The position numbers and the translations under genes were made by a program. Below, in pieces: positions 7,260 to 32,810 of a stretch of DNA of 63,007 nt (positions within the stretch are counted from its first letter, which is position 1; every line of letters starts with the position of its first letter). The stretch spans positions 1,674,001-1,737,007 of the forward strand of contig CDLV01000011.1 of assembly GCA_001244265.2 (NCBI GenBank), written 5' to 3'. Source of the stretch: Microbotryum violaceum (Eukaryota). The notes below the pieces were generated by a model, which worked only from the letters and a program-made list of their open reading frames with translations, was not told the origin of the DNA and searched no databases.

Positions 7260-7548
7260 GTGTAGGGCTGGAAGCACACGTTCCAGATGGGACAACTCAC
7301 GGGATCTCCTTGCCTGAGCCCGCACAGCATGCGCACAGCCTCCGTGAGGTATCCATTGATGATGTAAAGAAGTGACACCGATCTGTAGATGACGTTGAGA
7401 AGGCCAAGGAAGCGTTCTGGCGCTCCCATCGCTCGAAAGACGCTCATGATCCAGTCATGATCAACCAGGTTATATGCGCTTTCCTGATCAAGCGATAGGA
7501 GAGCCGAGTCAGCAAGGTCAAGAGAGCGAATTGGTTCAAGGAGCAGGG
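7260..7548 (-). pseudogene. LINE reverse transcriptase fragment
   Basis: ALLSLDQESAYNLVDHDWI...IINGYLT...GLRQGDPVSCPIWN (RT domains 3-4). Confidence 0.88.
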
Positions 7549-8022
7549 GAGCAGGGACAAGTGACTTCCCGCGTCTGAGGCCTTTACCCTATATTACCCT
7601 AACTAGTTACCCTAACTAGTAACTAGTAAAAAAAAGGTGTGGGTTAAGGAATGTACCTAAAATCGCTGTTTTTAACTAGGTTGCGGCCCTCCGGGCCGCC
7701 TGTGGTGGATGTACCAGCATACTGTTGTGTCTGCCGCACCTGCCTGTGGTGTCCATGTTTTGATCAGAAGTCATGTACAAGCGCTGTGGTAGCTTTTGTA
7801 TTTTCTGCGCCGTTCCAACGAAGCTACAGCGCTCCCAGTATTTTCCTTCTTTTTTTCACTCACGTAAAACAATGCTTCCACTCATATTGCATTTAATGAA
7901 CCGCAAGCGCGTGGCTTTACATGATATTGCTTCTACAGCAGAGCTCTGCCTGACGTGCGAGGCGAGGGCTGGCGTTTGTCACGTGATGCGGTGCGCCGGC
8001 GGTGTCAGTGTCATTCCGGCAG

Positions 8023-8100
8023 TCGACCAGCGGCATTAGGGGCTGAACAACCAATTTGCCCGTATGGCATTCGACCAGCGGCATTAGGGGCTGAACAACA
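8023..8100 (+). repeat. 48-bp minisatellite in Helitron 5' region (~1.6 units)
   Basis: TCGACCAGCGGCATTAGGGGCTGAACAACCAATTTGCCCGTATGGCAT unit. Confidence 0.85.
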
Positions 8101-9473
8101 AATCAAACCACGTAAATAATCCTGCGCCACTCCCTCGAACCTTTCCTTTCTCCCTCTCACTCTCATCCAATTTTAGTGACACTCATTCAAGAACAAACCC
8201 TCGCTGCTATGTCCCGGTCCCAAGGTCGCCAGGGACTCAGGGAGGGCCATCGCAACCTCGCCAAGTCTTGGGCGCGAGGGTAGCGCGGTAGCGCGGTACC
8301 ACGGGCCCGCGGCTCGACCCTCCTCTTCGTCCCGCACCGATCAACGAGATCAGTCCCCGCGCGTCATGACAACAATGCAACCGATCTTGGCATTGCGACA
8401 CGTATAAGAGCCCGCCGTGCAGCTGTGCAGAACGGACAGCGTGGTCAGCGCGATGGCCAACTCGACGCTGGGCTCGCCCCACCACCACCTCCGCAAAGGC
8501 GAGTGCGCCGGGCTCGAATCGCGCTCAAACCCCTCAAGCCCCACGTTTCGATCCGCGACGACCTCGGCCCGCAGACGGCCGTGTGCACCCACTGCAAGGC
8601 TCAGCACTGGGAACTAGGAGCCACCGTGTTTTGCGTGTTTGGTCGCCTCTACCATCGACTCGGCGCCCTGATCCCTGCCGTGAATCAACGCCCAGCCTTT
8701 GCTCAAATATGGCTGATCAACCCGGCCGAGGCCACCGACACACGACTTCAAGGACCCGACAGCGCAAAGACTCGCATTCAAAGATCAACGCTGACCAAGC
8801 TCGAGTCCATGTTGCGCACCGGCAATCGCTTTATGAGGGAGTTCGCATCGGCCAAAGCTCGCGCAGGTTGGGATACGGCCAAAGAGTGGATCCTGCGCCT
8901 CTGCCTCCCGCCAGGCCGGGACCGACGTACCCACAACCTTCCTACGTCGAGCACGGAAATGGCGATGCTTATCTGCGATTCCGACACCAACACGGGAGAT
9001 CGTGGACCGCAAGACCTTATTCTCCAGGTGCACGGTGATCGATGTCCCGATGGTCGGCCCAAGTACCAAATCGTTAGCTCGCTCCATCCGTCCGCGATGC
9101 CTCTCCGTTACCCACTACTTTTTCCTGCAGGGGAAGATGGCTTCCACCCCAACATTCCTCTTTGCGGTTCGATCGAGTTGGGCCACTCTTCGCCAAAAGA
9201 CAGCAACAAAGAAGGTGAGGACGAGGAGGAAGGGGACAAAAAGAACGGTGATGGTGAACATAAGCATCTTTGGCTCCTCCTCGGGTGTTCCCATTCTGTT
9301 AAGGCGCGAGCACAGACTGATATTGAATGTTTGAATACCTACGACGAAGGTCAAGTAAAGGGGGTCAAGGTGGTGAGTCTCGCGTTCACAAATCCTTTGC
9401 GTTCTACTTGCACAAACGCGACAAGCCCGCATGGCACTCGACGTCCCTTCCCGGCGTTCGTGATCGAAAGATA

Positions 9474-12400
9474 TGAAAGGCAAGCGCGGCACCCTAACGC
9501 CTGATCCAAAAGTAAAGCAATTTGAATTGATGTAGTTCAAATACCAGGTGCCACATAAGGTGCGTAAGGCAAACTTGCCTTACATCTGCGCCGACTCTCG
9601 GAATCACAGATCAACTTACTCCAGCGACCAATCACCGAGGACGAGGTCGTGGCCGCGATCGGGACGACGCACCCGGGGCGATCGCCGGGACCGTCGGGCG
9701 TGCCCTACGAACTCTACCAGACCGCACCCAAGGCGTGGGCCAAGGTGCTGACCAAGGCCTACAACGCGATGATAGAGCGAGGCTCACTCTCTCCCAAGCA
9801 GGGCCAAGGACTCGTGCGCCTCATCTTCAAGCGACACAAGAAGAATGCCGATCGCGCCGAACTTTCGTCGTACCGGCCGATCACCCTGCGCGAGTGCGAT
9901 TACAAGATCTTTACCAAGGTCTATGTCGCCCGTTTGAACCAGATTCTACCGGATCTCCTCCCGCCGCAGCAGCACGGATTCGTCAAGGACCGCCGATCGG
10001 CTGACGCTGCACTACACCTTCGTCTCCTGATCGAGGAAGTTGGCGCGCGCAGGACCGAGTTCCCCGCGGCCGCACTCTTATCTCTTGACCAATCGTCCGC
10101 CTACGACCTCGTCGAGCATGACTGGATCTTTGCCATCTTTGACGCTCTGGGCGCTCCTGCCACCTTTCTTCGCGTGCTGAGGATGCTCTACTCGGGTGAC
10201 TCGACCTCGGCCCGCTACATCATCAATGGGTTCTTGACGGCGCCGGTACGACTGACGTGTGGGCTCGGCCAAGGGGACCCGGCGTCGTCGTCGGTCTGGG
10301 ACATCGTGTTTCAGCCGTTTCTGGATGCTCTACACCGTCGAAACATCGCGCTGAATCTCTCCATACCTGCACTTCATCCGTACCCACAGATCCGCGCCAT
10401 TACATCGCTTGCTTTTGCCGATGACGTTGTCGTCGCCGTCGCGGGCTTGGGGTCACTCAACTTGCTCGATGACCTGGCGCTCGACTGGAGGCATGCAACG
10501 AATGGCCGGCTCAACACGGACAAGACGGTCGTCCTACCGATCGGACGCCGCTGGGACCCGGGGCAACGCCCGCTCGTCGTCAAGGCCGCAGGCGAGTCGC
10601 TCGAGTGGATCGGCCTCCCCTTCGACCCGAGCGGCGACACCGAACTCGCCTACGCGAATCTCATCGAACGCCTCGAGGCGACGCTGGAAGGGGTTCAGCA
10701 TCGCTGGCTCACACACCACATCCGTGCCTTTTACGTCAATCGGTACGCCATCCCCAAGATCCTACACTTCCTTGCAGCCGACATCCCGCCGCCCGAAGTC
10801 GTCAAGAAGCTCGATGACATGCTCGTCGATTTCGTCCGTGGGGGCAAGGGCAGGACCAGCTACGGCAGAGATATCGTGTTCACAGCCAAGCTTAAGGGGG
10901 ACCGGGGTGATCAGGATGCAGGACGTCGTGGACGCGGTTGCGGCACGGATCTGGGACGTTCTTCTCGGCGGTTCGGGCGCGATCTGGCAAGGACTTGCGC
11001 GCGCGGCACTCCAGCGAGCTCATTCCGACCTCGACCTGGCCACCGATCTCTGGCCACATCCATCCACTCCCATCCCCAGCGACCTCCATCCCCGATGGCA
11101 AGCAGTATTGGGGGTTCCGAAACAGCAAGACGCGCAGGTCAACCCGAGGACCTTGACCACCGCGAACCTGCTCGCGCTTCCCACCTTGCTCGGCAGCCTC
11201 CACACCCCCATCAGAGGGAGACAGACCATCGACGCGGTTCATATACCTGACTACCTTCGTCTCCAGGGCTACCCGAAGGTGGCGGATCTCTACCGGCGCG
11301 AGTTGTATGCGGGTGGGGGGTTTCACCTTTGGACGCCGCCGGCGGATGTGCTCGGCGACAACAGCGAGTACGATCGACGCGGGCTCCCGCAGCGACTGGC
11401 AATCGCGGCCTGGTACCGGTTCACTGTCGATCGACACAAGAACACGCCCTTGGCGGTGGCAGTGGCAGCAGGACGGCTCAACGTGCCTCCCCGGATCGGC
11501 ACCAGCGCACCGCTCGAGGCGATTCTCCCCAAGCCCGTGGCCCGCTTCGCAATGGAGCAGCGCCTTCCGGACCCGGTGCTTCCACAGCAGGCGAGCCAGT
11601 ACAAGCTGCTGAACATGGCTCGACCGTACACCATCCGTCGCATCCGCCGGGTCCTGAACGCGAAGGCCTTTACCAACACGCTCGGGCTCAAGGGACCACC
11701 GCAGCCGGACGACCTCAGGAGCTTTTGGAAGGCGGTCAACTCGAAGGCACTGACGGCGAGGGAGAGGGAAGTTTGGTTTAAGCTGACTCTCCGCTTCACC
11801 CCGACGCGCAAGCTGCAACACCAACAGAATCACGACACTTCTCCCGCGTGCCTCGTCTGCGAAGCGCCGGTGGACGACACCGACCACTCCTTTTTCGGCT
11901 GCGTTGACTCGCGGAATGTCTGGATCGCGGCAAGGGGCGTGCTCTGCGACGCACTCGGGTGCGACACGATTGAGGACGCCCAGTACACGACACTGCAACG
12001 GCTCTTTGGCCTCCCCAGGCTCAAGGCCAAGCTCAGCGAACAGGAAGGGGCGGGCAGGACGATCGAGATGTTCACGGGGATGGTTTTGGAAATGATCAGC
12101 AGTGGGAGATGGAGGATGCAGAAGCACGGGACGAGGATGGAAAGCGTGGAGAGGAGGAGAGTGGTACTGGAGGAGAGGATGAAGTTGAGGGCGGGAGGAG
12201 CAGGGGGCGGGCGAGGGCAGTAGAGGCTGGGTTCGATTTCCCCCCACCACACCCCACACACACACACCATCACGCTTCATCTTCCAACAAAACACTGTAT
12301 ACTAAATATCTTGCTTTCATCTTTCATCTATTACAGGTCTGCCTTCGTTGCTCATGGACCGGCTCGCGATTTGAGAATGACTCGACGGTGACTCGCGCTC

Positions 12401-12881
12401 TTTGGCTTCGGGGTTATGAGTCAAGGGAGGGATCAGCAGACACAGGCAGAAAGTCGGCTTTGAGGGGCCAGGGACTGCTGAGGTGGAGGTTTTGAGGGGC
12501 CTCCACCGCGTCTTGTTGTGACCGAGCATAGACTTAGGACTTCGCGGGTCAGGGTAGTTGCGCAGTCGATCTCCTGTCTTTGTCTCGACCGAGTTGGGAA
12601 GTGACGGCGGGGTGGGCCTCTTGTCGCTTAGTAAATTGTTTTATTACTCCTTTCTCTTTCTCTCTCTCTCTCCTTCTCTCTCTCATTCGTCTCCTGGGGG
12701 GGAGCAACCGCTTGGCTGGGGCACTTGAATCCCAAGTATCGGATTGGTGGACACCGGCCCGTTTCTCGCATCTTGCGGGCGGTTTGTGTTATCATCGTCG
12801 ACTTCCATCTAGTTTTTCCGTAGGCCAATCAGGGGGAACAGGAATTGGGGGCAATATGATGAACAAGTTCTACAAAAAAAA
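9474..12881 (+). mobile_element. 5'-truncated LINE (L1/Tx1-like) inserted in Helitron RepHel
   Basis: RT ORF 9649-~10900 (YRPITL, GQGDP, FADD), frameshift, C-terminal CLVC..HSFFGC zinc finger ending 12223, poly(A) 12874-12884, TSD AAAGATA at 9467-9473 and 12882-12888. Confidence 0.93.
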
Positions 12882-12888
12882 AAAGATA

Positions 12889-15800
12889 CTCCCAGGCTGA
12901 GGCCGATCGACTAAACTACATCCAGTTGCATTAAGAAAACCTACGCCTCAGCACGACCCAAGGCATCAACGGCTTAACCCCGGACCAAATTGGACGCTCG
13001 ATGACTTTGGGCTCGATGTTCAAGAATAGACCGCGCGACATCATGCAGCGATACCAGGATGCGATGGCGTGCGTTGTCAAACATGGAAAGCCTCCGCTGC
13101 TCATCACGATGACGTGCGTTCCTGAATCACCGCAAACCAAGGCTGCACTGGGGCCGAACGACAAAGCATGCAACCGTCCGGATCTCATTGCACGAGTGTT
13201 TGAAGCCAAGCTGAACCGACTCTGCGACGACGTTTTTGGCAACAAGCAACGTGCAGGCTGTTTTGGCGTGGTTCTGACGCATACACATGTGATTGAGTAT
13301 CAGAAGCGGGGCCTGCCACATGCCCATATCCTCATCACCCTCGCGCCGGACTATCATCCTTTGTCGACGGAAGCGATCGACAAGATGATCTCGGCCGAGA
13401 TACCCGATCCTTCGCGCCATCCTGATCTCCACGAGACCGTCACAAAGCACATGCTGCATGGCAAGTGTGGCGGAAACTCGACTCAGCCCTGCATGGAGAA
13501 GGACAAGTACGGTAATCCGAGGTGCAAGCGCCATTTTCCTCGCGAACAGAACCCCCATACCCGCATGCACCCTGAAGGCTACCCGTTGTATCGCCGACGC
13601 TTTCGCCACGCCGTTGTCAAGGGGGGTGTTATCTACAACGATGGTGACTACGTGCCGTACTCGCCTTATCTCTGCGCCAAGTACAATGCGCATATCAATG
13701 TGGAGGCTGTGACAACGATCGGCGCGATCAAGTACCTCTTCAAGTATGTGTACAAAGGTCCGGATCGAGCTGTGGCGCGTGTTGAGCGTGCAGCGAACGG
13801 TGAAGGGGCTCGCGAGGACGAACCGGTTCGAGATGAGATCAACGAGTTCGTCGAAGGTCGCTACATCAGTGCTCCAGAAGCGGTCCACCGCCTATTCGGA
13901 TTCTCGGTCGGTAGAGTGTGACCACCCGTCAATCGACTACTGGTCCATCTGGAGAATCAACAATCTGTGCAGATCAATCCCAATGAACCGCTGCCCCTCG
14001 ACACTCCGCCCACTCGCTCCAAACTGACCGGCTTCTTCGACCTGTGCGCTGCAGCTCCCGACGGCGAGCTCACTACCACGTTGCTCTACACGAATGTGCC
14101 GCGCTACTACTCCTGGAATAAGGAGAAGTTGCGCTGGAAACGCCGAGTCCATGATCGCAATGTCATTGGACGAATCTACACCGTCCCACTGCGTAGTGGG
14201 GAGCGCTTTTACCTCAGACTGCTCCTCGAGGTCGTCATGGGCCCGACATCGTTTGCGGACCTGCTCATGTTCGAAGACGTCGTGTATCCTTCCTATCGCG
14301 CCGCTTGCGCCGCTCGCGGACTTCTCGCCGACGATGGCGAGCATCACATCTGTCTTAGGGAAGCTGCACATATTGAAACCGGTGACCAACTACGCCGATT
14401 ATTCGTGTTCATACTCATCCATGCGACGGTTGCCAACACACGAGCTTTGCTGGATCGTCACTTTGCTTCTCTTAGCGACGATGCCCGTTATCACATCGAA
14501 CGCTATGAAGACGTGCCCATCAACAATCAAACCATCCGCCTGTGGACCCTCAACAAGATTCGTCTCCTCCTTGCGGCAAACGATCGAGCTTTGGCCTTCT
14601 TTGATCTTCCCGAGCTGACCGAGGACGAAGTGCGGCTGTTTGATCGTCTCGAGGAACGGCTTCCCCGTTTTGATGGCCAGCAATGCGCGCAAGATGCCGA
14701 AGCGGCGCATGCCCGTCTGAACCACGACCAACGAATTGCATTTGACGAGTGTCTTTGCGCGGTCGAGCTCGATGTCGTCGATCAGATGCGCGACAACAAC
14801 CTTGGGCCGCAGCATGTGTTTTTCCTGCTAGCGCCTGGGGTACTGGCAAGACTTTTGTGGAAAATGCCCTTCTCGATACTGTGCGAGCTCGAGGCGACCA
14901 AGCGATTGCGGTGGCGTCGTCCGGAGTAGCGGCGTTGCTTCTCAAGGGAGGACACACGGCGCATTCAACTTTTCGAATCCCACTCGACACCTTGCCAACC
15001 TCAACGTGTCCAGTCGACAGGGAGAGTAATCTCGCGCTGATGCTGCGTACCACCAAGCTCATCATTTGGGATGAAGCCCCAATGGCGCATCGCTTCGCGG
15101 TGGAAGCTGTCGACCGTTTACTGCGTGATCTCCGAGAGACCGAGGAGCACTTCGGCGGGGTGACAATGATCTTTGCGGGTCAGTTGGGCTCTTCCGCCTC
15201 CGCTCTGAACAGCGGCATGCTAACGAGGTTTCCAATTTGTAGGGGACTTTCGCCAGTGCCTTCCTGTCGTTCCCAAAGGAACTCCCGGTCAAATCGTCGA
15301 TGCATCCCTCATCAAGGCAGACTTCTGGCGCGACGTTCGTGTCTTGCGACTTACCGAGAACATGCGTCTCAGCTCGAACGCTGATGCGATGGACGAGGCT
15401 CAATTGGCTCGAACGCGCGACTTTGCGGAATGGCTACTCACCGTGGGAGATGGAACTGCCAACATGCACCCATACGACAAGATTGCAGTACGTTTGGCTC
15501 CCCTCTTTTACCCAACCAACCGACACTAAGACCCCTTCTATCCGTTTCGCAGCTGCCTGATTACCTGCTGCTTCCGGACGGTCAAAGAACGGCCGAACGG
15601 TTGATCAACTTTGTCTACCCCGGTTTAAGGACCGTGAACAAGGAGTCCCTCGAAGACCTGATTCAGCTGTTCTCACGTCAGGCAATCCTAGCTCCGCATA
15701 ATGCAACGGTCGATCGCATCAATGCCAAGCTGCTGGAAGAGTTCAATGGCGACTACATCGAGTATCGCAGCGCAGACGAGGTCGTTGAGGCAGGCGAAAC

Positions 15801-16392
15801 TGGGGGTGGAATGGCGCCGGAACTGATTTCGCCAGAGTATCTACATTCAATCAACCCATCCAACTTCCCCGCGCATCACTTGCGTCTCAAGGAAGGGATC
15901 CCCGTCGTTCTTCTTCGCAATTTGGACCCAGACGCGGGCCTCTGCAACGGTACCCGCCTGATCGTGTCGCACGCAAGATCGAGAGTCATTCAAGCCATCA
16001 TCTTGACCGGAGATCGAGCGGGCACCACGGTCTTCATCCCTCGCGTGCGACTTGAGACAAATGCGACTGGCAGTCGCCAACTTGGTTTCACTATGCGCCG
16101 GCTCCAATTCCCGCTTCGCGTTGCCTTGGCCATGACGATCAACAAAGCCCAAGGTCAATCACTCGATCGTGTTGGCGTCGATCTCTCCCTACATCCCGTC
16201 TTCACTCATGGGCAGCTGTATGTGGCATTGTCTCGAGCCATGAGTGTTGATCGAATCAAGGTGCTACTGCCCTCTTGCGACCCCGCCGATGATGACAACG
16301 ACCTACAAGCCGTTGATCGAGCGGCAGCGGCAGCCACCGCGACCCCAAACCCAGTATTCCGCTCTGTTCTCAGAGCAATGAATGGGAAATAG
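12889..16392 (+). pseudogene. Helitron RepHel (HUH Rep + Pif1-family helicase), C-terminal part
   Basis: LITMTC, EYQKRGLPHAH, KYLFKYVYKG; GTGKT (frameshifted ~14838), IIWDEAPM, GDFRQ, AMTINKAQGQSL, HGQLYVALSR; introns 15179-15242 and 15488-15552; in-frame TGA 13919-13921. Confidence 0.95.
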
Positions 16393-17142
16393 TTTTGAAG
16401 CTGTCCTTTGTATTGTGTGTTTTACCTTCAACTGAGATCACGATTCTGCTATTTAATTTTCATCCTCCCGTTAATTTAACGGTTTCCCACTGGTTTGATA
16501 CAAAAAGAAACTGTTTTTTTTTTTTTTGCGTAGAAAATAAAATATGTGATCAGGCTTAGTACAAATAATTCAACGGGTTCCCACTGGTTGGTACAATTTT
16601 CAACGTCTGAAACGATCGAACCCCTCAGGTGCGCGTGTTTCCGCGTGTGACAAAGATAGGAGGGATGACCCGACGAAGAGGGTCGAGACGAGTCGAGACA
16701 TGTTCTAGGTACTTCTCAAGAGAGACGAGGACGAGGGGGAGAGTTGGGATGTGACCTTGGACGGAAGTTGAGTTGCAGAGAAAGGAGAGAGAAGTTATCA
16801 GCTATGAAACTGAGGAGTTAGGTCAGAGGAGGCGGTAAAAACCAGGAGAGGTGTTAAAACGAAAGTCCGAGAGACGAGAGCGAGTCGAGAGTCCGAGGGA
16901 CGAGCGCATAGCGTAGGAGACGTCATGGGAAAGGGTCTCACCGCAACGCGAGGAGCGGTGCGGGTCGTGCGAGAAAGGCGCACGCGGAGTTCAGAACGGG
17001 CAGTTACGAAAATCTCCTGACACCGGAGTCGACTCGGAGGATCGTTACGCCTCTTGTCCTTTTGCTTGTATCATCCATCAAAGTCGCCCTTTGTTAGTCG
17101 TTGCTATCCGACCTCATCCGTGAAGAACCTACGCCTCGTACC

Positions 17143-17968
17143 ATGCTGCTCTTGTGGTCGCATTTGGCCGCACTCACTCTCGTAGCGAGTTTGGCAACGT
17201 GTTCTCCCCTCACGGCCTCGCCCCTGAAGGCGCTCGACAACGGCCGTAGTTTCGACCCGCCCCCTGGCAGCGAAGCAGTCGCCGATTTCACGAAGCAGAA
17301 CATCTCCGGTTCACACACCCCCGACTTTCGTCACCCATCGACGTTGACCAGAGACGTCTCTCATGTCGCCCCTCTCGCTCTAAGGCCCCGTTGGCTTCCG
17401 CGCCCGCGTTTCCCCCTTCTCACCCCTCCCGCCATCGTCTATCCTCGGGGAGGCGAGACATACCGCCCCGGCGACAAGGTCACTTACAGGTGGAAGCCGA
17501 CCCACTCCCCTGAAAAAGTTGATCTTTGGTTAACATGCCGTGGGAGTGAGGCACAGGAAATTAGTGAGCTCCTTCAGATGCCTCCCAGAAAAGATCGAAA
17601 GGCTACTGCGACCCTGACCACAGGAAGACCCCAATGTCTAAACTTGATGCTAACTTGATCTTGAGGTTGACTCAATTCTATAGGGTTTATCGATCGCGAC
17701 ATCCCGCTCAACACTGGAGGCAACACTACCACGATCCCAAATGACATAGCCTGGAATGTCCTTAACGGTGAAGAAGGAGCAAATGCAAATGTCTCGGCGT
17801 ATGTGCCTCCACCGTGACTGCACCTTCCTTTTCTCTCGAGGCTTGATCAACCGACAGCTTGTCTGTCCCCACAGCTTCATTTACTTCGGCGTCTCACGAA
17901 CCAGCTACACCAAAGATCAGGGAGTATTCGGGCAACATACTCACTCCTTTACCATCAAGAACAATTGA
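17143..17968 (+). CDS. Predicted secreted protein, ~209 aa, 3 exons (17143-17563, 17684-17798, 17875-17968); resembles the Kre9/Knh1-N / Ser-Thr-rich GPI-anchored family Ig-like domain
   Basis: Signal-peptide-like MLLLWSHLAALTLVASLATC; IVYPRGGETYRPGDKVTYRW and terminal SFTI motifs; GTGAGC..CTAAC..TAG and GTATGT..CAG introns give an open 630-nt CDS. Confidence 0.72.
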
Positions 17969-18325
17969 AATTAGAGGAGCGCGCCATACTCCGGCCAGAC
18001 CACCGGAAACATCCTTGCTATACCGTATGCCTTTGTCAACGTCGATATCTTTTATACATCACAACAAGCCGTTCAAGCCATACCAACACCCATGCACAGT
18101 TTTCCTTTTTGGCTGTTCATCTCAAGGTACATAATCTCTCCCGTCATGCATGCAATGACGACAAGGACGACGCGGGCGATCTCCCTTCACTTCCTCAGTC
18201 GTTTCGGCAATTTTTCCAAAGTCTATATGCCCGTCCAAACGACACAACCAAGCTCAACATGGGAGGCTGATCAGAACGCAGAACACGATGGCCGATTACC
18301 CGGTCCTCCAGTGCCTTCACCCATG

Positions 18326-18712
18326 TCAATCCGCATTCGCATTCCCGTTGGCGATGGCGCCACCCACCGTGCCTTGCTTCTTCTTTTCCTCGTCCTCGGG
18401 CGCGCCGAAGTGGCCGTACATAACCCGCTTGGGGTCTTTTCCAACGCGCTCGCTTCAGGTTTGTTTGGTTTGTGAGGTTAAGATACCGTTGCACACAAGT
18501 CCGCATCAACAGGGGAAGTCAGTCAGTCACCGTCGAAAACGGGATCACCGGCGAACACGGGACCTGTTAGGACGAGGCTTACATCGCTCGGCGGCGGATG
18601 CCTCTTGTTCAACTTTGGAGGCGTTGCGGCGCTTCTCGAGAAGAGTGTGCCTTTGACCTTCCCTGTCTCTCCACCGCTTTTGTAGCTTGGTGCTGTTGAT
18701 AAAGGAGCGATG
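18326..18712 (-). pseudogene. Possible 3' fragment of a host gene (mirror ~45300-45686)
   Basis: Two exon-like frames (FINSTKLQKRWRD...EASAAER and ERVGKDPKRVMYGHFG...NAD*) separated by a GTAAGC..AG intron-like segment; no start seen. Confidence 0.35.
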
Positions 18713-18783
18713 GACTAGTCAGGTTCGGGTTCCACCCGAGCCAAAGATTTTAGAAACGCAGTTTTGAAGCAAACGTAGTATAC

Positions 18784-19010
18784 CCAGCCTCTACTGCCCT
18801 CGCCCGCCTCTTGCTCCTCCCGCCCTCAACTCATCCCCTCCTCCAGTACCACCCTTTTCCTCTCCACGCTTTCCATCCTCGTCCCGTGCTTCTGCATCCT
18901 CCCTCTCCCACTGCTGATCATCTCCAAGCCCATCCCCGTGAAAATCTTGATTGTCCTGCCCACCCCTTCCTGATCGCTGAGTTTGGCCTTGAGCTTGGGG
19001 AGGCCAAAGA
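18784..19010 (-). pseudogene. Degenerate LINE 3' fragment (continues at 25073-25210), split by copia
   Basis: Diverged copy of ~11875-12230 (DHYFFGC..NVWIA..LFGLPKLKAKL). Confidence 0.85.
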
Positions 19011-19280
19011 TTTTAGCACATCTGAGGCCCGAGGCACGAGGTACGTAAGTACGAGAGCCGAAGATGGTAGTAAAGATGGTTCGTATATTGCAAGACTAAC
19101 CTGAGGCCCGAGGCACGAGCTACGTAAGTACGCGAGCCGAAGATGGTAGTAAAGATAGTTGGAGAAGAGAGAGAAGAGCCAAGTGCGCGCGCACTAGGGA
19201 GGCTAGAGGCGCGCGGCTAATATCAACAACTCGATACTAATCTATTCTAAGTGGGAGGAAACAGTAATACCCTTTTGACA
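19011..19280 (-). repeat. Copia 3' LTR with internal ~60-bp duplication
   Basis: Matches 24882-25072; CTGAGGCCCGAGGCACGAG...GGTAGTAAAGAT occurs twice. Confidence 0.9.
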
Positions 19281-19293
19281 CCCCCCCGTGCTG

Positions 19294-20703
<1,410 letters not shown>

Positions 20704-20870
20704 TCAAGCCACCCTGCGCGCGGCGCCATGGGCGCCTCTTGACCTTAGTTTTTTGAGTAGTCTTTCTTCGCCTGCGAAGTACACCGTTTGATCCTTTCTG
20801 TTCGGACTCGGAATCAGTGAGGCTCGAGAGCGATCTCGTGCCTTTCACTTTTTTTTTGAAAAACGACAAG

Positions 20871-21587
20871 TCGGCTGTACAACTCCGTCACCACCCGACG
20901 TTAAAGCCCGACCTTCGCACAGCCGAGTTGTCGGTTTCAAAAAAAAAGTGAAAGGCACTCGGCTGTACGACTCCGTCACCACCCGACGTTAAAGCCCGAC
21001 CTTTGCACAGCCGAGTTGTCGGTTTCAAAAAAAAAGTGAAAGGCACTCGGCTGTACGACTCCGTCACCACCCGACGTTAAAGCCCGACCTTTGCACAGCC
21101 GAGTTGTCGGTTTCAAAAAAAAAGTGAAAGGCACTCGGCTGTACGACTCCGTCACCACCCGACGTTAAAGCCCGACCTTTGCACAGCCGAGTTGTCGGTT
21201 TCAAAAAAAAAGTGAAAGGCACTCGGCTGTACGACTCCGTCACCACCCGACGTTAAAGCCCGACCTTCGCACAGCCGAGTTGTTGTAAGGCCCGTGCGCC
21301 TGGGCCTTAGGAAGAGGGGACGCGCGCCTGGGCACTCTTAGTCTCTCTCCAGCGACTGATACGAGTGTCCAGGCGAGCACAAGGTGGATCAGAAGGCATT
21401 GTCATACCAGCGACTGATACGAGTGTCCAGTGTCAATTCTACATACTTTGGTCCTGTGATCCTTGTCGTCGTCGCTCAGGTGTACACTCCAACGGGGTGT
21501 ATTACAGTTGTCGGTTTCAAAAAAAAAGTGAAAGGCATTCGGCTGTACGACTCCGCACCACCCGACGTTAAAGCCCAACCTTTGCAA
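20871..21587 (+). repeat. 88-bp tandem array (~5.5 units), interrupted by a solo LTR
   Basis: Near-identical ORFs at 20888, 20976 and 21064; the unit resumes at 21507. Confidence 0.93.
21284..21506. mobile_element. Solo LTR (223 bp)
   Basis: TGTAA...TTACA termini with 5-bp TSD GTTGT on both sides. Confidence 0.85.
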
Positions 21588-21601
21588 CCGCCCCGGCAAC
21601 G

Positions 21602-22755
21602 CATGGTGCAGACCCGCTCAGCCGCTGCGAAGGAAAAAAAACAAAAACGAACCAGAACTCGAGCCAGCTCGAACCAGAACCCAGAACCAGAACCCCGCCC
21701 GGCCCCTGCCCCCGCCCAGCCCCGCTCCGCCCAGCCCCGCAACACGGCCTCGAGCACCGTGCCCGCCACAGAACCCAGAATCGAACCGGAACAGAACAGG
21801 AGAATGTTGCCCGACTCCCGCGATACACCCCTGCACATGGAGACCCCGGCATGAAGAGTCAAGCTCGATATGCCGTTGTTGAAGGCGGGTTCCAAGTCGA
21901 GGGACGTGGCGCGCTGGCTGGCAGGGTGTGAAGATGCGGTCGAATCGGCCAAATGGAACTACGGCAAGACTGCGACCGTACACCTCATTTGTGAGGCCGG
22001 CAGCCGGATGGAGGGGGAAGGAGGGGACTGGCACATTGATTCTCGCGACAAGTTGAAGGCGCTCAAGACGTGGGACGACTTTGCAGCGGAAGTGAAGGCG
22101 CGATTCGTCAGCGAGAAGACCGGCTTGGCGGCGCGGCTTGGCGGCGGAGCACGCCTTTTTCAACGCGCAACAGAGCGGGACGTTCAACGAATTCATTGCA
22201 CTATTGACGCAAGAGCGCAGCCAAGCTGGACTGGCCTCCGACGGCACCCAAGTCATCCCCGATGAACTGTTCAAGCGCCAACTGCTCCACCGATGCGACG
22301 AGCTCCTGTATCTCCGCGCGACCGCCTCCCCCTCGTTTGCGCTTGACAAGTTTTCCGTTAATGCACTTGTGGCATATCTCCAGACAATGTGGGACGCTAT
22401 CACCTTGGAGCGAGCAACAACAGGCATGCGGAGGCTCAACTTACGTCACGAACGCGGTGAACCAACTCAGGCTGTGGGGCCTCGCACACCAAGGTTGGAA
22501 GGTGCAGCAAAGGAGAAGGCAATGTTCGAAGGCCGCTGTTTCGTATGCGACACGGTAGGCCACATCTCTTCAAACTGCCCTTCCAAGCCCAACACTGCAT
22601 CCCCTCGTCGCGATCCCCCCGGATCTACCCCCGGGCCTCGAATGGTAGCCGCAATCCGAACGTACGAGGACACCGGTGATTCAACCGCCTTTGTAGGCAT
22701 CTCAAGCGATTCAGAAGACGACGACGAACGATTGTTTGCGTCAGAACCCGGATAA
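21602..22755 (+). pseudogene. Retrotransposon gag with CCHC zinc knuckle
   Basis: MVQTRS start, TWDDFAAEVKARF, CFVCDTVGHISSNC; stop at 21852-21854, frameshift ~22140. Confidence 0.82.
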
Positions 22756-22969
22756 GGGAATTGATTCAAGGAGGGGTGAGTGTAAGGCGCCGCTCCGCTT
22801 ACGCCTCACGACAACCTCAGCGGCCGAAGTTTTACTTGCGCGCGGCGCCACGGGCGCCTCTTGACCTTAGTCCTTTTAGTAGTCTTTCTTCGCCTGCGAA
22901 TTACACCGTTTGATCCTTTCAGTTTGGACTCGGAACCAGTGAGGCTCGAGAGCAATCTCGTGCCTTTCA

Positions 22970-23637
22970 GGATCCACACCAAAAACCTATCATCTCACGC
23001 GGCCCTCAAGGGGGAGTCCCTAATCATTGTTGGTCGGGTACCGCTCCGCTTGTGACGGCTCTCCGAGCTTTCGGATGCCGCGCCTGGGCTACCGTCCCGG
23101 GTCACCGACGCGACAAACTCGATCCGAAGGGCATACCTCTCGTTTTTGTCGGCTACGATCGTCATGCCAAGGCGTATCGGCTCCTCGACCCCACCTCCAT
23201 GCGCGTCAGCCTGAGCCGCGACGTCAAATTCGTGGAGACCGAATTCCCCTTCCTCTCCATGCCCAAACGCGCGACAGCTCCGTCTATTCCGGGTTACCCC
23301 GCCCGATCGCTCAGCCTATGCTGCAACCCGAGGGGCCACGCGCGACGCCGAATCAGCTCCCGCCGCCAAATGACGAGCTCCCGCCGCCGAATGACGAGCT
23401 CCCGCCGCCGAATGACGAACTTCCGGCACCGGATGACGAAGCCGCCTCTGTCCGCAGCGACGCGACCAATGCCGCCGAAGTCCTGCCGCCGCCGGAGCAA
23501 GTTCCTGAACCGCCTGCCAAAGTCAAGCCGGTGTGGGAATACGGCGATCTGGCGAGAGTGGGTCCTGATCCGGGCAAGTACGGCGAAGTCGACCCGCGTA
23601 ACATCATCGAGGGCCCGCGCACTCGTCGCCAACTTGT
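22970..23637 (+). pseudogene. Copia integrase C-terminal segment, inverted relative to the host element
   Basis: [31 protein letters not shown]; 21-bp tandem repeat ~23355-23440. Confidence 0.88.
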
Positions 23638-23838
23638 TGAAAGGCACGAGATTGCTCTCGAGCCTCACTGGTTCCGAGTCCAAACTGAAAGGATCAAACG
23701 GTGTAATTCGCAGGCGAAGAAAGACTACTAAAAGGACTAAGGTCAAGAGACGCGGCGGCGCCGCGCGCGAGGGCAAGCGTGAGGCCGCAGAGGTCGGCTC
23801 GAGGTCGTCGTGAGGCGTAAGCGGAGCGGCGCCTTACA
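23638..23838 (-). repeat. Third LTR of the gag-only family, inverted
   Basis: Reverse complement of 22781-22969 (TGAAAGGCAC...GCCTTACA). Confidence 0.9.
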
Positions 23839-24877
23839 GAGAGACGCCCTTAAACTCCTTCAATGCAGCCTTCAGCTCGAGGTACTTGTTACGCCTGGTG
23901 ATGTCGGGACACTTCTCGACCCAGCGCTTGCCTTGTTGGCATGCGGGACAGTTACCCGGCGGAGGACCCGAACTATCCCATCGACCCTTTCTATTCTGGC
24001 CCGCTTTCGTCGTCGAACTCGGCGTTTGGGCCACTAGAGCTGGAGTAGACTCGTTGCGAAGTGTGCGAGCAACCGATTCCATTGACGCGAAGATCTCTTC
24101 AACGACTGGAAGCTTGCTTTTGTTCGGCTGAAGCGAGTAGAACGTGGTGCGCCAGCTATTGTAGAGGGGAGGTAAGTCGTCGATCATACGAGCCGATATG
24201 ACTTGTTCAAGATCGAGTTGGGCCATTCGAAGGTGATTGATCAGAACCATGGCTCGGTTCGTCCACTCGTTGAAGCCGGCCCAGGTCGAAGGAAGTTTGG
24301 GCATGTTGAAGAAGTCACGGATCAGCGTGGAGTGTGATTGCGCGTCACTGGGAGCGTAGCGTTTCGTGAGGGCGACCCAGCAGGCGTGGGCATTTCCGCA
24401 CTTCTGAGAGACGGGGCCTATCGTGCCCTTCGCGACGGTCGTCAGCTAGCCGGCGAGCACACGGGCCGCGTAATCCTCCCATCGCGAGTGCAGTTCGGGC
24501 AGCCAGGCTTTGTCGTGGCAACCGGTGCGCAAGTATAGGCATACCTCGCGAGGCACGGTAAGAGACATGGTGAGGTCCCAGTCGACGTAGTTATTGTCCG
24601 AGAGTTTGGACTCGTCGGGGAATGCCGGAGGGCTCGTGGGCGGCAGCAGGTTCCGCTTGGACACGTCGTCGTCATCGACAGAGCGGCGTTTCTTGACGAG
24701 GTCGTCGAATTGCTCGCGTGTGAGTAGAACGTGCATGGGAGGGATGACTATGTTGGGTTGGCTCGACAATGGCGAAGGTGGAGGGGGCGGTGTGCCCGTC
24801 TCATCGTTGCCGGCCATGCTGTTTTCGTCGTCGCTGTCGGGAAGGGCGATGTTGGCTGGTAGATCGGTGTGGCTCAT
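23839..24877 (-). pseudogene. Copia gag (stop at 24446), truncated by LTR
   Basis: [10 protein letters not shown] motif, LPPLYNSW, degenerate knuckle [14 protein letters not shown]. Confidence 0.85.
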
Positions 24878-24881
24878 AACC
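24871..24881 (-). promoter_or_regulatory. Primer-binding site, copia/Ty5 type (initiator Met half-tRNA); overlaps gag ATG
   Basis: GGTTATGAGCC adjacent to the 5' LTR. Confidence 0.8.
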
Positions 24882-25072
24882 TTTTAGCACATCTGAGGCC
24901 CGAGGCACGAGGTACGTAAGTACGAGAGCCGAAGATGGTAGTAAAGATAGTTGGAGAAGAGAGAGAAGAGCCAAGTGCGCGCGCACTAGGGAGGCTAGAG
25001 GCGCGCGGCTAATATCAACAACTAGATACTAATCTATTCTAAGTGGGAGGAAACAGTAATACCCTTTTGACA
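24882..25072 (-). repeat. Copia 5' LTR (191 bp)
   Basis: TGTCAAAAGG...GTGCTAAAA followed directly by the PBS. Confidence 0.92.
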
Positions 25073-26601
25073 AAAGAGGAGTCGTTTCAGTGTCGTGTAG
25101 TCGGCGTCATCGATCGTGTCACACCCCAGTGCGTTGCAGAGCACGCCCCTCGTCGCGATCCAGACGTTCCGCGAGTCGAAACACCCGAAGAAGTAATGGT
25201 CGGTGTTGTTTTGGAGGAGCTCCCCGCTCCTATGACTGGATTGGGTCACATGATCCCTATGAGAAAGTGTTTGCAATGAGTCAGCACCTGACACTGCAAC
25301 GAAGGCGCATCAGAGGAGGACCACACCCTGTAGTATTTCTGTGGCGCGGGGCCGACACCCAATGTGGCGGCGATGGCAGATGGCAGATGGCGCGCTGCAT
25401 TCTCTCTCATGCAGTGATCAGGTGGGCCGCAGTTGGCACTTCAAATCACAATGACAGCATCCAGGTACCGCCTACTTTGGATTCTTTTCCTCGAGGCTTG
25501 GTTGATCTGAACTTGATCTGACCCCCATCAAATCAGATCAGATCAGATCTAATGCGGACCCTTGGGGGTTGGGTTACAGGCACGATCTTCAACTACATGA
25601 GGTCCGGGTGAGAGTGCGTCTTACCAAGTGTGGACGTATTTGGTGGTCATGTAAAAGGGCTCGTCAAGTTTCAAAGTGATACATGGCATACTACACGAGA
25701 TACAGCGAATTGCCCAGCTACGTCAGGTAAATGCACCATCCTTAATTGGTAAACGCACCTTTCTTCCTGAGCAAACGCACCAACTTACGCGAAGAATGCA
25801 CCATTTGTAAGTGAACTTTGCACCTTACTACCGGGGTAGATGGGTCAAGCTTCGGGGGTAGACGCGCGCGCGTAATTGGTAAATGCACCATTTACTCGCG
25901 GCATTATGTATGGATGCGGAACAAATTGCTCACCCGTTCTGGCGCAGCCGTGTGGGGTTGAATCCAGGAGGTCCCTTCATAACGCACAAGGCCCTGTACC
26001 CATTCACAGTAGTATCACGATGCTTGCTTCAATCCTCGAACCGGCGGACCAATTCATCTCGCACAAAATGGCCGAGACGATCAAGCATGACATAATGACA
26101 TTGCGCCCCCCTTGGCGCACTGCAAGCACGACCAGCCCATGCGTTCCAATGGCGAAAGTACGCGCTTAAATGATCAGAAACCGTGGGATCCTTCTGCTAA
26201 CTTCGAGTACGCGGAATCGCACACGGATACGTCTGGGACACTGTTGGCGGACACCCTTCGGAGGGAAGCCTTGAGTCTACCGGAGTCCGGCTCTGATTAT
26301 AAGGCGTCGATGCGGATTTCGGCCACGTCGTTACGATACGTAGATCTATTCCCCAAGAAGGCTGAAGTGTGATACTAACCCGTGGTGTACGTTGACTTTG
26401 CACTCTGCCACTTCAGAGTCAGGAGCAGGTCCAAGCAATCGAGCCGCTGCGGCGTGCCGGTGCTGCCCTAGAACTAGCGGCCGTACCCATATCCGCCAGC
26501 GCTAGTGTTGACCATCAAGGGTTCGTATTTTATGGTCAACACATTTTCGAGGTGTGGAAATTCCAGACTTTTAATTGGGTTGGGCAGCAAAGGAAAGTAT
26601 A

Positions 26602-26945
26602 TTGTCAAAATGTTCTCATGTGGTAACTGATGAAGACCACGACTCAGTCCAATGGAACGGGACGAGAACAGAGTAAGTAGGATTCCAGAGAATGCATACC
26701 TGATGAAGACCACGACTCAGTCCAATGGAACGGGACGAGAACAGAGTGGCCAAAGGCTAAGGGACAAACTCCAGAAGGACTAGGAAGGGATGATAAGCGG
26801 AGATAATAAAGAGCTAATAGTGACTAAAAAAGGGTAAGACAAATGAGGTGCTGAAGGGATTCATGAAGTCGCTAGAGGCTCAAGATGAAGTACCATAACA
26901 GGTACTATACGTAGACTGAAGGACGATGTAACCATATAATGACAA
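26602..26945. mobile_element. 344-bp arm-specific insertion, probable solo LTR
   Basis: Absent from other U copies; TTGTCA...TGACAA ends, AGTATA duplication, internal 48-bp direct repeat (26627-26674, 26700-26747). Confidence 0.75.
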
Positions 26946-27471
26946 AGTATAGTTAACTCAGAACTTTGATTTGGTTGGACACGTTCCTGTTCTGTGGTGG
27001 TCGCCGGTTGTTTGATGCTGCATCTAGATAGAGTAGTATCAGAAGACTTTATTTACATGTGGAGAACCGTCACTTCAAGCAGTGCACAGTAAAAGTGTGA
27101 GAGAATGAGGGAGAACCTGGAAACCTCTGCCTTCTAATGTCAAATCACGTCGTTCTCATCTGTTCAACGGGTTTGATCCTCCGCCCCCAAAAACATGGAA
27201 ACCTCTACTTTCTTGTCGACGGGGTAACCCTTGGAATCCATTTAATCGATGCAACCGCGCGAGGCTAGCGGAAGTCAGACCGTGCGAAAGGCGGGGTGAG
27301 AAACGGTGCGATGTGCCCAATCGACAGGGCTGGCCGTGTGGGCTGGCTTAACAGCGATGAGTAAAGAGGAGCTGATGAGGCGGTGGCCCCGCACCGGTTG
27401 CGACGGTTGGGAACGACGCTCTGGGCTGAAATTGTCAATAGAAGCATACGCTGATTCGGTAAATTACAACA

Positions 27472-30206
27472 CTACCCTAACTAGTAAAAAAAAAGTGTGA
27501 GTTAAGGAATGTACCTAAAATCGCTGTTTTTAACTAGGTTGCGGCCCTCCGGGCCGCCTGTGGTGGATTCACCAGAATACTGTTGTGTCTGCCGCACCTG
27601 CCTGTGGTGTCCATGTTTCGATCAGAAGTCATGTACAAGCGCTGTGGTGGCTTTTGTATTTTCTGCGCCGTTCCAACGAAGCTACAGCGCTCCCAGTATT
27701 TTCCTTCTTTTTTTCGCTCACGTAAAACAATGCTTCCACTCATATGGTATTTAATGAACCGCAAGCGCGTGGCTTTGCATGATATTGCTTCTACAGCAGA
27801 GCTCTGCCTGACGTGCGAGGCGAGGGCTGGCGTTTGTCACGTGATGCGGTGCGCCGGCGGTGTCAGTGTCATTCCGGCAGTCGACCAGCGGCATTAGGGG
27901 CTGAACAACCAATTTGCCCGTATGGCATTCGACCAGCGGCATTAGGGGCTGAACAACCAATTTGCCCGTATGGCATTCGACCAGCGGCATTAGGGGCTGA
28001 ACAACCAATTTGCCCGTATGGCATTCGACCAGCGGCATTAGGGGCTGAACAACAAATCAAACCACGTAAATAATCCTGCGCCACTCCCTCGAACCTTTCC
28101 TTTCTCCCTCTCACTCTCATCCAATTTTAGTGACACTCATTCAAGAACAAACCCTCGCTGCTATGTCCCGGTCCCAAGGTCGCCAGGGACTCAGGGAGGG
28201 CCATCGCAACCTCGCCAAGTCTTGGGCGCGAGGGTAGCGCGGTAGCGCGGTACCACGGGCCCGCGGCTCGACCCTCCTCTTCGTCCCGCACCGATCAACG
28301 AGATCAGTCCCCCGCGCGTCATGACAACAATGCAACCGATCTTGGCATTGCGACACGTATAAGAGCCCGCCGTGCAGCTGTGCAGAACGGACAGCGTGGT
28401 CAGCGCGATGGCCAACTCGACGCTGGGCTCGCCCCACCAACCACCTCCGCAAAGGCAAGTGCGCCGGGCTCGAATCGCGCTCAAACCCCTCAAGCCCCAC
28501 GTTTTCGCAGGGCAAGGTGCAGCTACCTCCCCCTCCCCAGCCCAATCTCGAGTATCGGCAGCTTCTTCAAGGCTCGGATAGCGGTCAGTTGCTCCGTCCA
28601 ACAACATTCGTCTGCAGTAGACCCACATGCTGAATTGTGCGATGCACCTACACAGACGCTAAAGCATTCCGCGAGAATGCCCGGTCTTACAATAACGCGT
28701 TGTCGTTCACTTCGCTCGCTGCCCTCTGGGACCAAACTCAAGTGGGCACGCTAGGACCCCCCGTGTTTCGCGTGTTCGGTCGCCTCTATCATCGACTCGG
28801 CGCTCTGATCCCTGCGGTGAATCAATGCCCAGCCTTTACTCAGACATGGCTCATCGAGCCGGCCGAGGCCACCAACACACGACTTCAAGGACCCGACAGC
28901 GCAGAGACTCGCATTCAAAGATCAACGCTGACCAAGCTCGAGTCCATGTTGCGCACCGGCAATCGCTTTGTGAGGGAGTTCGCATCGGCCAAACCTCGCG
29001 CAGGTTGGGATACGGCCAAAGAGTGGATCCTGCGCCTCTGCCTCCCGCCAGGCCGGGACCGACGCACCCACAACCTTCCTACGTCAGCACGGAAATGGCG
29101 ATGCTTATCTGCGATTCCGACACCAACACGGGAGATCGTGGACCGCAAGACCTTATTCTCCAGGTGCACGGTGATCGATGTCCCGATGGTCGGCCCAAGT
29201 ACCAAATCGTTAGCTCGCTCCATCCGTCTGCGATGCCTCTCCGGTACCCACTACTCTTCCCCGCGGGGAAGATGGCTTCCACCCCAACATTCCTCTTTGC
29301 GGTTTCAACCAAGCTGGGCCGCCCATCGCCAGAAACCGAGAGCAGATCGACAATGGTGTCCAATTGCGCGAGCTACTTGACGGCCTTGGTCCAGATGAAG
29401 AAGACGAACAGGAGGACGATGAGGATGAAGGCGACGAGGAGGACGAAGAGAATGGTGATGGTGAACGTAAGCTAAGCGTCTTCGGCTCATTCTCATATAC
29501 CTCTCTGTTGAGACGCACCCTCAGACTGACATAAATTGTTTGAAAATCTAGGACGAAGATCAAACAAGAGGGGTCGAGGTGGATCAACCCGAGTTTCGCG
29601 TTCCCAATACTTTGCATATCACTTGCACGAACGCGACGACTACTTCTCCATTCCGCATGTCACCCAGCGTCTCTTCCTCGAGTTCGTGATTGACGGATAC
29701 TCCCAAGTCGAGACCGATCGACTCAACTACATCCGGTTGCATCAAGAAAGTCTGCGCCTCACCACGGCCCAAGGCATCACCGACGCTGTTGCCAACGGCC
29801 TGACCCCGGATCAAATTGGACGTTCGGTGATTTTGGGCTCGACGTTCAAGAATAGCCCGCGCGAGATCACGCAGCGCTACCAAGATGCGATGGCTTGCGT
29901 CGTCAAATATGGAAAGCCTTCGCTGTTCATCACGGTGACGTGCAACCCCGAATGGCCGGAAATCAAGGCTGCACTGGGGCCGAACGACAAAGCATGCAAC
30001 CGTCCGGATCTCATTGCACGAGTGTTTGAAGCCAAGTCCGGCAACAAGCGACACGCAGGCTGTTTCGGCGATGAATGTAAGATGAATATATTTTGTTTCT
30101 TTGCTGTACTTCGTGTTTGACCTCTGCGCTAATACCATGTAGACTGTTCGATTATCCTGCTATTTTTTGAATTTCATCCTCCGTTAATTTAACGGGTTCC
30201 CACTGG
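27472..30206 (+). mobile_element. Non-autonomous Helitron (type B, internally deleted)
   Basis: RepHel N-terminus through FITVTCNPEW..RPDLIARVF; HUH motif and helicase absent; intron ~29468-29550; 3' palindrome + CTGG|T. Confidence 0.92.
27882..28056 (+). repeat. 48-bp minisatellite (~3.6 units)
   Basis: Same unit as 8023; ~2.6 units at 37476-37604. Confidence 0.9.
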
Positions 30207-32645: not shown

Positions 32646-32810
32646 GGATTTGGGTTTCGCCGTGTTGTATAGTGTGCGATGAGCGCTTTTTCGACGTTGG
32701 TCGCAAGACTAAGGGTGATAGGGATGGTGTCGGGCTGGACTATATCGCGGTAATCGGTTTCGGATCCTTTCAACTTCCTGGAGGCGTCTTTCATCGCCAT
32801 GGCGGAGGTA

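Follow-up and report, generated by a model that had tools for sequence, protein, structure and literature searches.

Introduction

Gene capture by Helitrons through bypass of the terminator is established in bats, maize and cell culture. To our knowledge, few clear natural cases let a single stretch of DNA show the composite unit together with its likely source and its target, and in fungi, cases with transfer of a complete and intact gene are even scarcer. Here we describe a candidate of this kind in Microbotryum violaceum, in a stretch of 63,007 nucleotides (contig CDLV01000011.1, positions 1,674,001 to 1,737,007 of the forward strand; hereafter the window). The element in question is the left arm of a large inverted repeat. 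It begins at the 5' end of one dead Helitron (A), ends at the 3' end of a second (B), carries a putative secreted-protein gene between them and splits the reverse transcriptase (RT) gene of a long interspersed nuclear element (LINE) at a single point. That this arm (7586-30206) is a composite, or end-bypass, Helitron that moved in one transposition is our preferred reading, to which we give about even weight for and against.

The composite model (Feschotte & Wessler 2001; Tempel et al. 2007) has a natural example in the bat element HelibatN539 (PMC4224331), which resembles the present locus in that host DNA between elements is mobilised and the upstream 3' end is kept inside. The unit described here is far larger (22.6 kb) and lies in a basidiomycete fungus, its cargo comprises, besides a complete intact gene, an entire Copia element plus a nested LINE, and it is present as a local inverted copy only, with no dispersed family and with an empty site that is deduced. 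In Helraiser (Grabundzija et al. 2016; PMC4778049), bypass of the terminator with transduction is reported in ~11.7% of events; the subterminal hairpin terminator, the bypass to the next usable 3' end, the absence of a target duplication and the T on the 3' side are all features in common. Unlike in that experimental system, the locus studied here is known from sequence alone, the hairpin of the bypassed terminator is intact, the 5' end reads TTACCC... and not TC, and the target lies between T and T.

ToxB-HLE, a Helitron-like element, is reported to duplicate the effector gene ToxB in Pyrenophora tritici-repentis (bioRxiv 10.1101/2025.11.13.688278), and the likeness is that a Helitron-like element is proposed to have duplicated a secreted effector-type gene in a plant-pathogenic fungus. 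That case concerns tandem ToxB duplications in many isolates of an ascomycete, whereas ours concerns inverted copies at one locus of one species, with a cargo of no known function. In M. lychnidis-dioicae, Helitrons are given as ~10% of the transposable element (TE) sequence, with small secreted protein genes near transposons (PMC4469406). Among the matches listed for Helitrons in the Microbotryum literature, no title or abstract opening describes a composite Helitron.

Two Inverted Arms Bounded by Helitron Termini

The window is eukaryotic, transposon-rich DNA of ~55% G+C. Pfam matches over it comprise LINE-type RTs, the Rep and PIF1 helicase domains of Helitrons, Copia domains and a ribosomal eS10 gene, and the closest proteins to its genes all come from Microbotryum anther-smut fungi. 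Self-BLAST revealed a large inverted repeat (left 7620-30207 versus right 56334-35334) in six blocks of 97.9-99.3% identity. The arms and the blocks are as follows.

7586-30206, plus strand: left arm, 22.6 kb, candidate composite Helitron (A, host DNA, Copia, flank U and B), with inverted homology to 35335-56340; its removal restores the split LINE open reading frame (ORF)
35335-56340, minus strand: right arm (B', U', H', A'), a candidate for the donor or for an older copy
7620-16503 with 56334-47440: inverted match 1, 99.25% identity
16566-19083 with 47470-44929: inverted match 2
24882-25855 with 45001-44030: inverted match 3
25852-26601 with 39288-38541: inverted match 4
26944-28009 with 38548-37476: inverted match 5
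27924-30207 with 37609-35334: inverted match 6

The outer boundary of the arms lies at TTACCCTAACTAG, the sequence common to both outer ends being TTACCCTAACTAGTAAAAAAAA, and the inner boundary reads ...CCGTTAATTTAACGGGTTCCCACTGG followed by T in both arms. An initial annotation of this DNA had each arm run from a Helitron 5' end to a Helitron 3' end with a hairpin and CTGG before T, and both boundaries are where it placed them and are Helitron termini. It had also listed Helitron A, host-like DNA, flank U and Helitron B as the contents; all four are present, but two stretches (18784-19010 and 25079-25209) are a LINE fragment and not host DNA. Likewise, the homology that it saw between the arms is real, although the inverted arms are not plain mirror images and are broken up by arm-specific DNA.

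The termini recur far beyond expectation. The 16-nt 3' end occurs five times in the window against 0.03 expected, and the 20-nt 5' end four times against 0.00 expected, the ends of A and of a further A-type copy (at 60556) being missed only through an extra TAACTAG. At 16493 and at 30206, a hairpin with a 6-bp stem and a 3-nt loop lies 11 nt from the end, before CTGG, in agreement with the CTRR end and the short hairpin ~10-12 nt upstream that are characteristic of Helitrons; the fold z-scores of the two hairpins are modest (-1.6 and -2.6). The canonical Helitron begins with TC and inserts between A and T without target-site duplication. Here the base 3' of the Helitron end is T at 5/5 termini, and the base 5' of the Helitron is A at the junctions with flank U.

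Two short stretches lie at the termini of A:

7586-7619, plus strand: extra tandem copies of the 5'-terminal 13-mer (TTACCCTATA, TTACCCTAACTAG twice, then TAACTAG), at A and the further A-type copy only
16494-16587, plus strand: 94-bp stretch that ends in a second 16-nt Helitron 3' terminus, without hairpin, left arm only

The tandem array at the 5' end of A (also at 60556-60588) repeats the first 13 nt of the element itself and contains the telomere-like motif CCCTAA; in sequencing run X1, another copy carries a different 13-mer array at a junction with flank U. The 94-bp stretch may have arisen as a very small tail-to-head insertion, or the double terminus may be ancestral, with its loss from the right arm due to repeat slippage.

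The Left Arm Splits a LINE at One Point

On both sides of the left arm lie parts of one LINE, here called LINEx.

30207-33092, minus strand: split LINE, 5' part, which begins with a fold-back of 285 bp (32811-33095)
7262-7585, minus strand: split LINE, continuation of the RT ORF

The ORF to the right of the arm (31634 to 30207, minus strand) encodes the N-terminal part of a LINE RT, and the ORF to its left (7588 to 7226, minus strand) encodes, according to Pfam, the next part. Aligned to the LINE copy that lies inside Helitron A, the first piece extends to position 521 and the second picks up at ~519. The arm was removed in silico at 20 alternative start points, and the joined ORF was scored against the reference RT. 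In-frame joins around 7586 gave one stop-free ORF with scores of 539-545, while out-of-frame joins scored 291-315. At 7586 the joint is gap-free against the reference RT and reads, by eye, QHGFIPCR followed directly by KASDAGSHLSLL. The occupied site is GGCCT, the arm, then TTCGAC, with no target duplication and no loss. From this we infer an empty site of GGCCTTTCGAC, and the uninterrupted LINE would read ...GAGGCCT followed directly by TTCGACAAGG.... Because the two halves rejoin exactly, the left arm sits at one precise insertion point, with Helitron termini as its bounds.

The split bears directly on the proposal, made in the initial annotation, that a whole arm was copied as one rolling-circle unit. 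For the left arm this idea gains strong support from the interruption of the RT ORF at a single point without target duplication; the right arm, in contrast, does not look like a second clean insertion. The same evidence touches an explanation that does without transposition, in which the arms would be an ordinary segmental inverted duplication, produced by fold-back, breakage-fusion-bridge cycles or non-homologous template switching, with ends that fell on Helitron tips by chance. The alternation of inverted copies, the two kinds of spacer and the 52,982-bp period of the region (see below) are indeed what is seen in palindromic amplicons. Such a duplication would have to place both of its end points on exact terminal Helitron nucleotides, however, and to rejoin the recipient LINE without loss or gain, and it is very unlikely that two unrelated LINE pieces in the same orientation would meet by chance within ~3 nt of one position. 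We consider this explanation highly improbable.

Two other repeats were observed at the split LINE. The near-palindrome of 285 bp (32811-33095, 89% alike) is a fold-back of its first ~140 bp and includes the start of the first ORF. A 43-bp direct repeat (6996-7038 and 33093-33135, 42/43 identical) brackets the truncated LINE together with the left arm. A reading as a LINE target duplication was considered and rejected, since the repeat has neither the length nor the position of a normal one; the LINE breaks off within the RT at ~7262, so it does not represent normal retrotransposition.

Helitrons A and B and a Possible Source of Transposase

The two Helitrons at the ends of the left arm have the following parts.

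7620-16493, plus strand: Helitron A with a dead Rep-helicase (RepHel) gene (Pfam; tblastn with P0006/P0007) and a hairpin-CTGG 3' end at 16493
8539-9444, plus strand: RepHel of A, N-terminal part
12887-14839, plus strand: RepHel of A, Rep part
to 16389, plus strand: RepHel of A, PIF1 helicase part
9473-12885, plus strand: 5'-truncated LINE (RVT_1, zf-RVT, poly-A) inside the RepHel of A, also in the right arm
27478-30206, plus strand: Helitron B, a 2.7-kb deletion derivative (RepHel amino acids 1-355, then the 3' tail) with a hairpin-CTGG end at 30206

Pfam identified PF14214 (Helitron_like_N), PF05970 and PF21530 in A and PF14214 in B. The RepHel with an HUH Rep domain and a PIF1-type helicase that marks a Helitron is thus present, though both local copies are broken. 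That both arms share inactivating lesions, as the initial annotation had it, is borne out by the LINE insertion at 9473-12885, an in-frame stop at 13919-13921 and a frameshift near 14839, all of which are directly visible in A and in the right arm. With these lesions common to both arms, a transposase acting in trans would be needed.

The initial annotation had also proposed to look for an intact RepHel of this family. While both local genes are broken, full-length relatives of 1470-1690 amino acids occur in the sister species: M. silenes-dioicae has a 90% cluster of 18 RepHel proteins, many of them of that length, and the RepHel of A has 93-99% protein identity to M. silenes-dioicae models. 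Compared with autonomous Microbotryum Helitrons such as BQ5605_C005g03639 (1584 amino acids), the Rep-helicase region of A is 93-98% identical in protein, but A is dead through its LINE insertion, stop and frameshift, and B is truncated after amino acid 355. A source of transposase in trans is thus plausible on the protein comparisons. In run X11, which is RNA-like, a contig skips an 85-nt GT..AG stretch (29467-29551) in the RepHel N-terminal region of B-type Helitrons, and Helitron transcripts appear to be made and spliced.

The identity between B and A is uneven and mosaic: it stands at 95-99.5% for the initial ~900 bp and at ~85% within the Rep part. The A' copy and a further A'-type copy at the left end of the window, called Z, are alone in having a short patch with an insertion of 18 bp and ~10 substitutions (equivalents of 8280-8305, at ~55650 in A' and ~2680 in Z); it looks like a short conversion tract from another Helitron.

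Taken in order, the 5' end of A (7586/7620), the 3' end of A (16493), host DNA (16588-18783) and the 3' end of B (30206), all in the same orientation, give the arrangement of a composite Helitron. The internal 3' terminus of A, retained at 16493, is expected after bypass.

Other Elements within the Arms

Between and beside the two Helitrons the arms hold host-like DNA and several further elements.

16588-18783, plus strand: host-like cargo DNA without TE match
18784-19010, minus strand: internal LINE fragment (scrap), first part, continued at 25079-25209 and split by Copia
19011-25078, no strand assigned: Copia-type long terminal repeat (LTR) retrotransposon (RVT_2, SH3_retrovirus, zf-CCHC), LTRs ~19011-19280 and 24882-25072
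25210-27477, plus strand: flank U ('Utail'), present three times in each period and in every case with a Helitron 5' end after it
56335-58260 (also 3355-5281), minus strand: third copy of flank U, adjoining the 5' end of A'
39289-44029, plus strand: 4.7-kb RT-bearing element, right arm only, 4-bp overlap at 25852-25855

Copia is complete in the left arm and reduced to a single LTR in the right arm, which implies that the copied unit already contained Copia. The difference between solo LTR and full element, like the insertion with a 4-bp overlap, is directly visible and would be the kind of event expected after copying. The arms are otherwise close (98.8-99.6% alike when substitutions are counted), with substitution divergence of 0.0-1.2% per segment and 109 substitutions in all, and the left arm has a repeat expansion at 26602-26943.

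The LINE scrap was considered as a part of the split LINE and ruled out; it has 85-92% DNA identity to the LINE inside A, while the split LINE matches that family only at the protein level. The third copy of flank U ends at the exact nucleotide at which the LINE scrap ends in the arms. We used neither the reading of flank U as a 5' extension of the Helitron nor that of a LINE inserted into it; position 5282 lacks a poly-A, and both ends of the scrap are truncated. In the 5' LTR of Copia (19011-19160), a 71-nt segment is repeated 79 nt downstream (83% alike) and is absent from the 3' LTR, and the Copia interior (20871-21310) holds an 88-bp tandem array of four to five copies.

The 4.7-kb element has a weak RVT_1 match and many frameshifts, and is unrelated to both LINE families of the window; as a candidate member of the split-LINE family it gave a single weak tblastx match (E 0.008) and was rejected. 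Its contigs are very deep in the sequencing runs, which points to a high-copy family.

The Cargo Gene

The host-like DNA contains one gene that is intact in both arms.

17143-17968, plus strand, and 46044-46869, minus strand: three-exon gene for a 209-amino-acid protein with a signal-peptide-like N-terminus

Its introns are GT..AG, and the signal-peptide-like start of the protein is MLLLWSHLAALTLVASLATCSP.... The protein belongs to a small family found in Microbotryum only, and its single Pfam match, to Kre9_KNH, is below threshold. A Pfam search at E<=1 with 18 ORFs of the spacer (5282-7037), the centre, flank U (25060-25518) and the cargo (17098-18653) returned three weak sub-threshold matches only. 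In run X11 there was little or no cover over 45676-47009, the region of the right-arm gene; this is uninformative on expression.

The two gene copies differ at 15 coding sites, 12 of them nonsynonymous and 3 synonymous, and their two introns (196 nt) are identical. Elsewhere in the cargo DNA, 10 substitutions were counted over ~1.57 kb, so that the coding sequence is ~4 times more diverged (Fisher p ~0.001). The pattern suggests diversifying selection or patchy conversion at the cargo gene, on counts that are small.

The Right Arm, the Direct Repeat and the Sequencing Runs

Around the right arm and at the window ends the following features were found.

33136-35334, plus strand: unique spacer with the ribosomal protein eS10 gene (~34122-34700; intron 34553-34628), here the S10 spacer
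1-3354, minus strand: 5' part of a further A'-type copy (direct repeat of 52982-56334)
60556-63007, plus strand: further A-type copy, 5' part; its LINE flank is the same as that of A

The further copies of the arm that the initial annotation had advised seeking are thus seen in part, as pieces of a third and a fourth copy within the window. They belong to a direct repeat (1-10057 and 52982-63007 in self-BLAST) with a period of 52,982 bp, whose join is exactly the 3' end of B' beside the S10 spacer. Its two copies differ at 12 substitution columns, several of them at the alignment end, and at 41 gap columns, mostly of 1 nt in G/C runs, the base being missing from the right-hand copy in 35/41. 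The repeat would be either a very recent tandem duplication, by unequal crossing-over between Helitron copies, or a redundant and poorly polished part of the assembly, and its reality is uncertain. The left arm is flanked by LINE on both sides and the right arm by the third flank U copy (U'') and the S10 spacer, both pairs in one locus.

Four sequencing runs, apparently of the same species as the window, were compared. In X1, X3 and X13, contigs link the S10 spacer with 26 nt of an inverted Helitron 3' end, short of the 31-nt bridging rule; contigs of X1 and X3 bridge from 39275 to 44034 without the 4.7-kb insert; and X11 splices the eS10 intron (34553-34628). Contig depths of S10 spacer, cargo and flank U stand at ~1 : 2-2.6 : 2.7-3, which fits the assembled ratio, depth not being copy number.

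These data bear on the possibility that a single locus was assembled repeatedly and appears as the arms or as the 53-kb repeat. The gap pattern of the direct repeat does resemble unpolished long-read sequence. The inverted arms, however, differ by large structural events and 109 substitutions, the X1 and X3 contigs hold a form of flank U without the 4.7-kb insert of the right arm, and the short joins to the S10 spacer in X1, X3 and X13 speak against it too. An artefact can apply to the direct repeat and not to the arm pair, for which we rate its probability as very low.

Transposition or Ectopic Repair

A possible source of the left arm is suggested by the sister species. One 143-kb contig of M. 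silenes-dioicae carries, in order, BQ5605_C050g12471 (the closest to the cargo gene), g12472 (the closest to the RepHel of A), five further gene models and g12478 (eS10), and the 90% clusters of the g12471 and g12472 proteins have one member each. The adjacency of an A-like RepHel and the cargo gene is kept there (g12472/g12471), and a right-arm-type copy is the candidate parental locus. In the window the cargo gene lies between RepHel and S10 in both arms, unlike in M. silenes-dioicae. The order in M. silenes-dioicae fits, indirectly, an A'-type copy followed by spacer, LINE and S10, which is the left end of the window (or the repeat 47440-60555) minus the left arm.

Under the composite reading, a RepHel acting in trans would have nicked the 5' end of dead Helitron A in an older block of right-arm type, whose orthologue is apparently present in M. 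silenes-dioicae. Replication would have run past the hairpin-CTGG terminator, or terminators, of A itself, would have carried along 2.2 kb of host DNA with the secreted-protein gene, the LINE scrap, the whole Copia and flank U, and would have come to a halt at the 3' end of B, the next Helitron to share the orientation of A. The unit of ~22.5 kb would then have integrated a few kb away, inverted, between T and T in the RT gene of the LINE, without target duplication. LTR-LTR recombination in the right arm, insertion of the RT-bearing element there, small indels and the 53-kb direct repeat would all be later. The single rolling-circle event, the identity of the donor and the transposase in trans are what we infer from this arrangement.

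Several observations weigh against this reading. The canonical TC is not found at the 5' ends, 6/6 of which read (T/C)TACCCTAACTAG..., and the LINE target reads T followed by T, and not A followed by T, an ambiguity of 1-2 T being left. Nor does the right arm make a clean donor: A' has as its 5' flank the third copy of flank U, the same flank that B has, and the right-hand flank pair does not look like one target. The evidence from M. silenes-dioicae consists of locus tags and cluster sizes and not of DNA. The empty LINE site was not seen in any other genome or run, and no joint or clear loose end was found at 30207 among the matches listed for the four runs. By depth, which is a weak measure, there are ~2 cargo copies per S10 copy, and nothing points to copies dispersed elsewhere.

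The tips of the left arm are a further point against it. B and B' have no differences over 29400-29999, and after these 600 identical bases they show ~36 differing columns in the last ~180 bp (30026-30206 versus 35335-35515, ~78% alike); the boundary is sharp, and either tip may come from a different Helitron copy. The left 5' tip differs as well, by two G-for-A changes in the first 23 bp of A and by the extra 13-mers. Differing left-arm tips are what would be expected if a resident Helitron had kept its own ends.

This brings in the rival that we take most seriously, unlikely as we judge it to be. It is akin to the scenario that the initial annotation gave as refuting its own reading, in which the Helitrons stood at the boundaries beforehand and the arm arose by recombination between them. 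A solitary Helitron of B type would have been resident in the LINE, and after a break in it the inverted block close by would have served as the template for ectopic gap repair or template switching, so that ~20 kb was copied between the resident element's own tips. One end of the break would have invaded the 5' region of A', and the other would have annealed in the 3' region of B'. This explanation would account for the difference of both left-arm tips from the right arm while the interior is 99-100% alike, and it would draw on the ~900 bp of 5' sequence (95-99.5%, mosaic) that A- and B-type elements have in common. The A'/Z-specific patch (8280-8305) implies that exchange among copies occurs here, and other products of recombination lie nearby (the solo LTR, the third flank U, the 53-kb direct repeat). 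It explains the exact split of the LINE equally well, since the resident element would be a true insertion. On the other side, it needs two events, including repair synthesis of ~20 kb. The 3' tip difference can also be explained if the B' beside S10 is a hybrid, left by the formation of the 53-kb repeat (unequal crossing-over with a resident Helitron), or an assembly switch point, in which case the left arm could be a faithful copy. The 5' tip difference amounts to 2 substitutions and the repeat array, and the array also varies in the X1 copy.

Implications

The mechanism itself is already described, and the kind of event is a known one under either the composite or the repair explanation; the locus is a new, unusually large and readable example. 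Its target can be read at the level of a single codon. The cargo gene, from a Microbotryum-specific family and with a signal-peptide-like start, falls in a class thought to interact with the host plant, and the locus could serve as a natural test case for the duplication of effector-type genes by Helitrons.

Should the repair explanation be true, near-identical Helitron ends would seed large inverted duplications in transposon-rich fungal DNA. Returning to the composite reading, we propose, tentatively and as something rather doubtful in its full extent, that the pair of dead Helitrons forms a 22.6-kb 'macro-Helitron', that one event copied the intact secreted-protein gene together with Copia and the nested LINE, and that the gene copies then diverged under positive selection. 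If this is true, such bypass from one Helitron to its neighbour would give a biotrophic plant pathogen a working means of gaining new effector-type paralogues.

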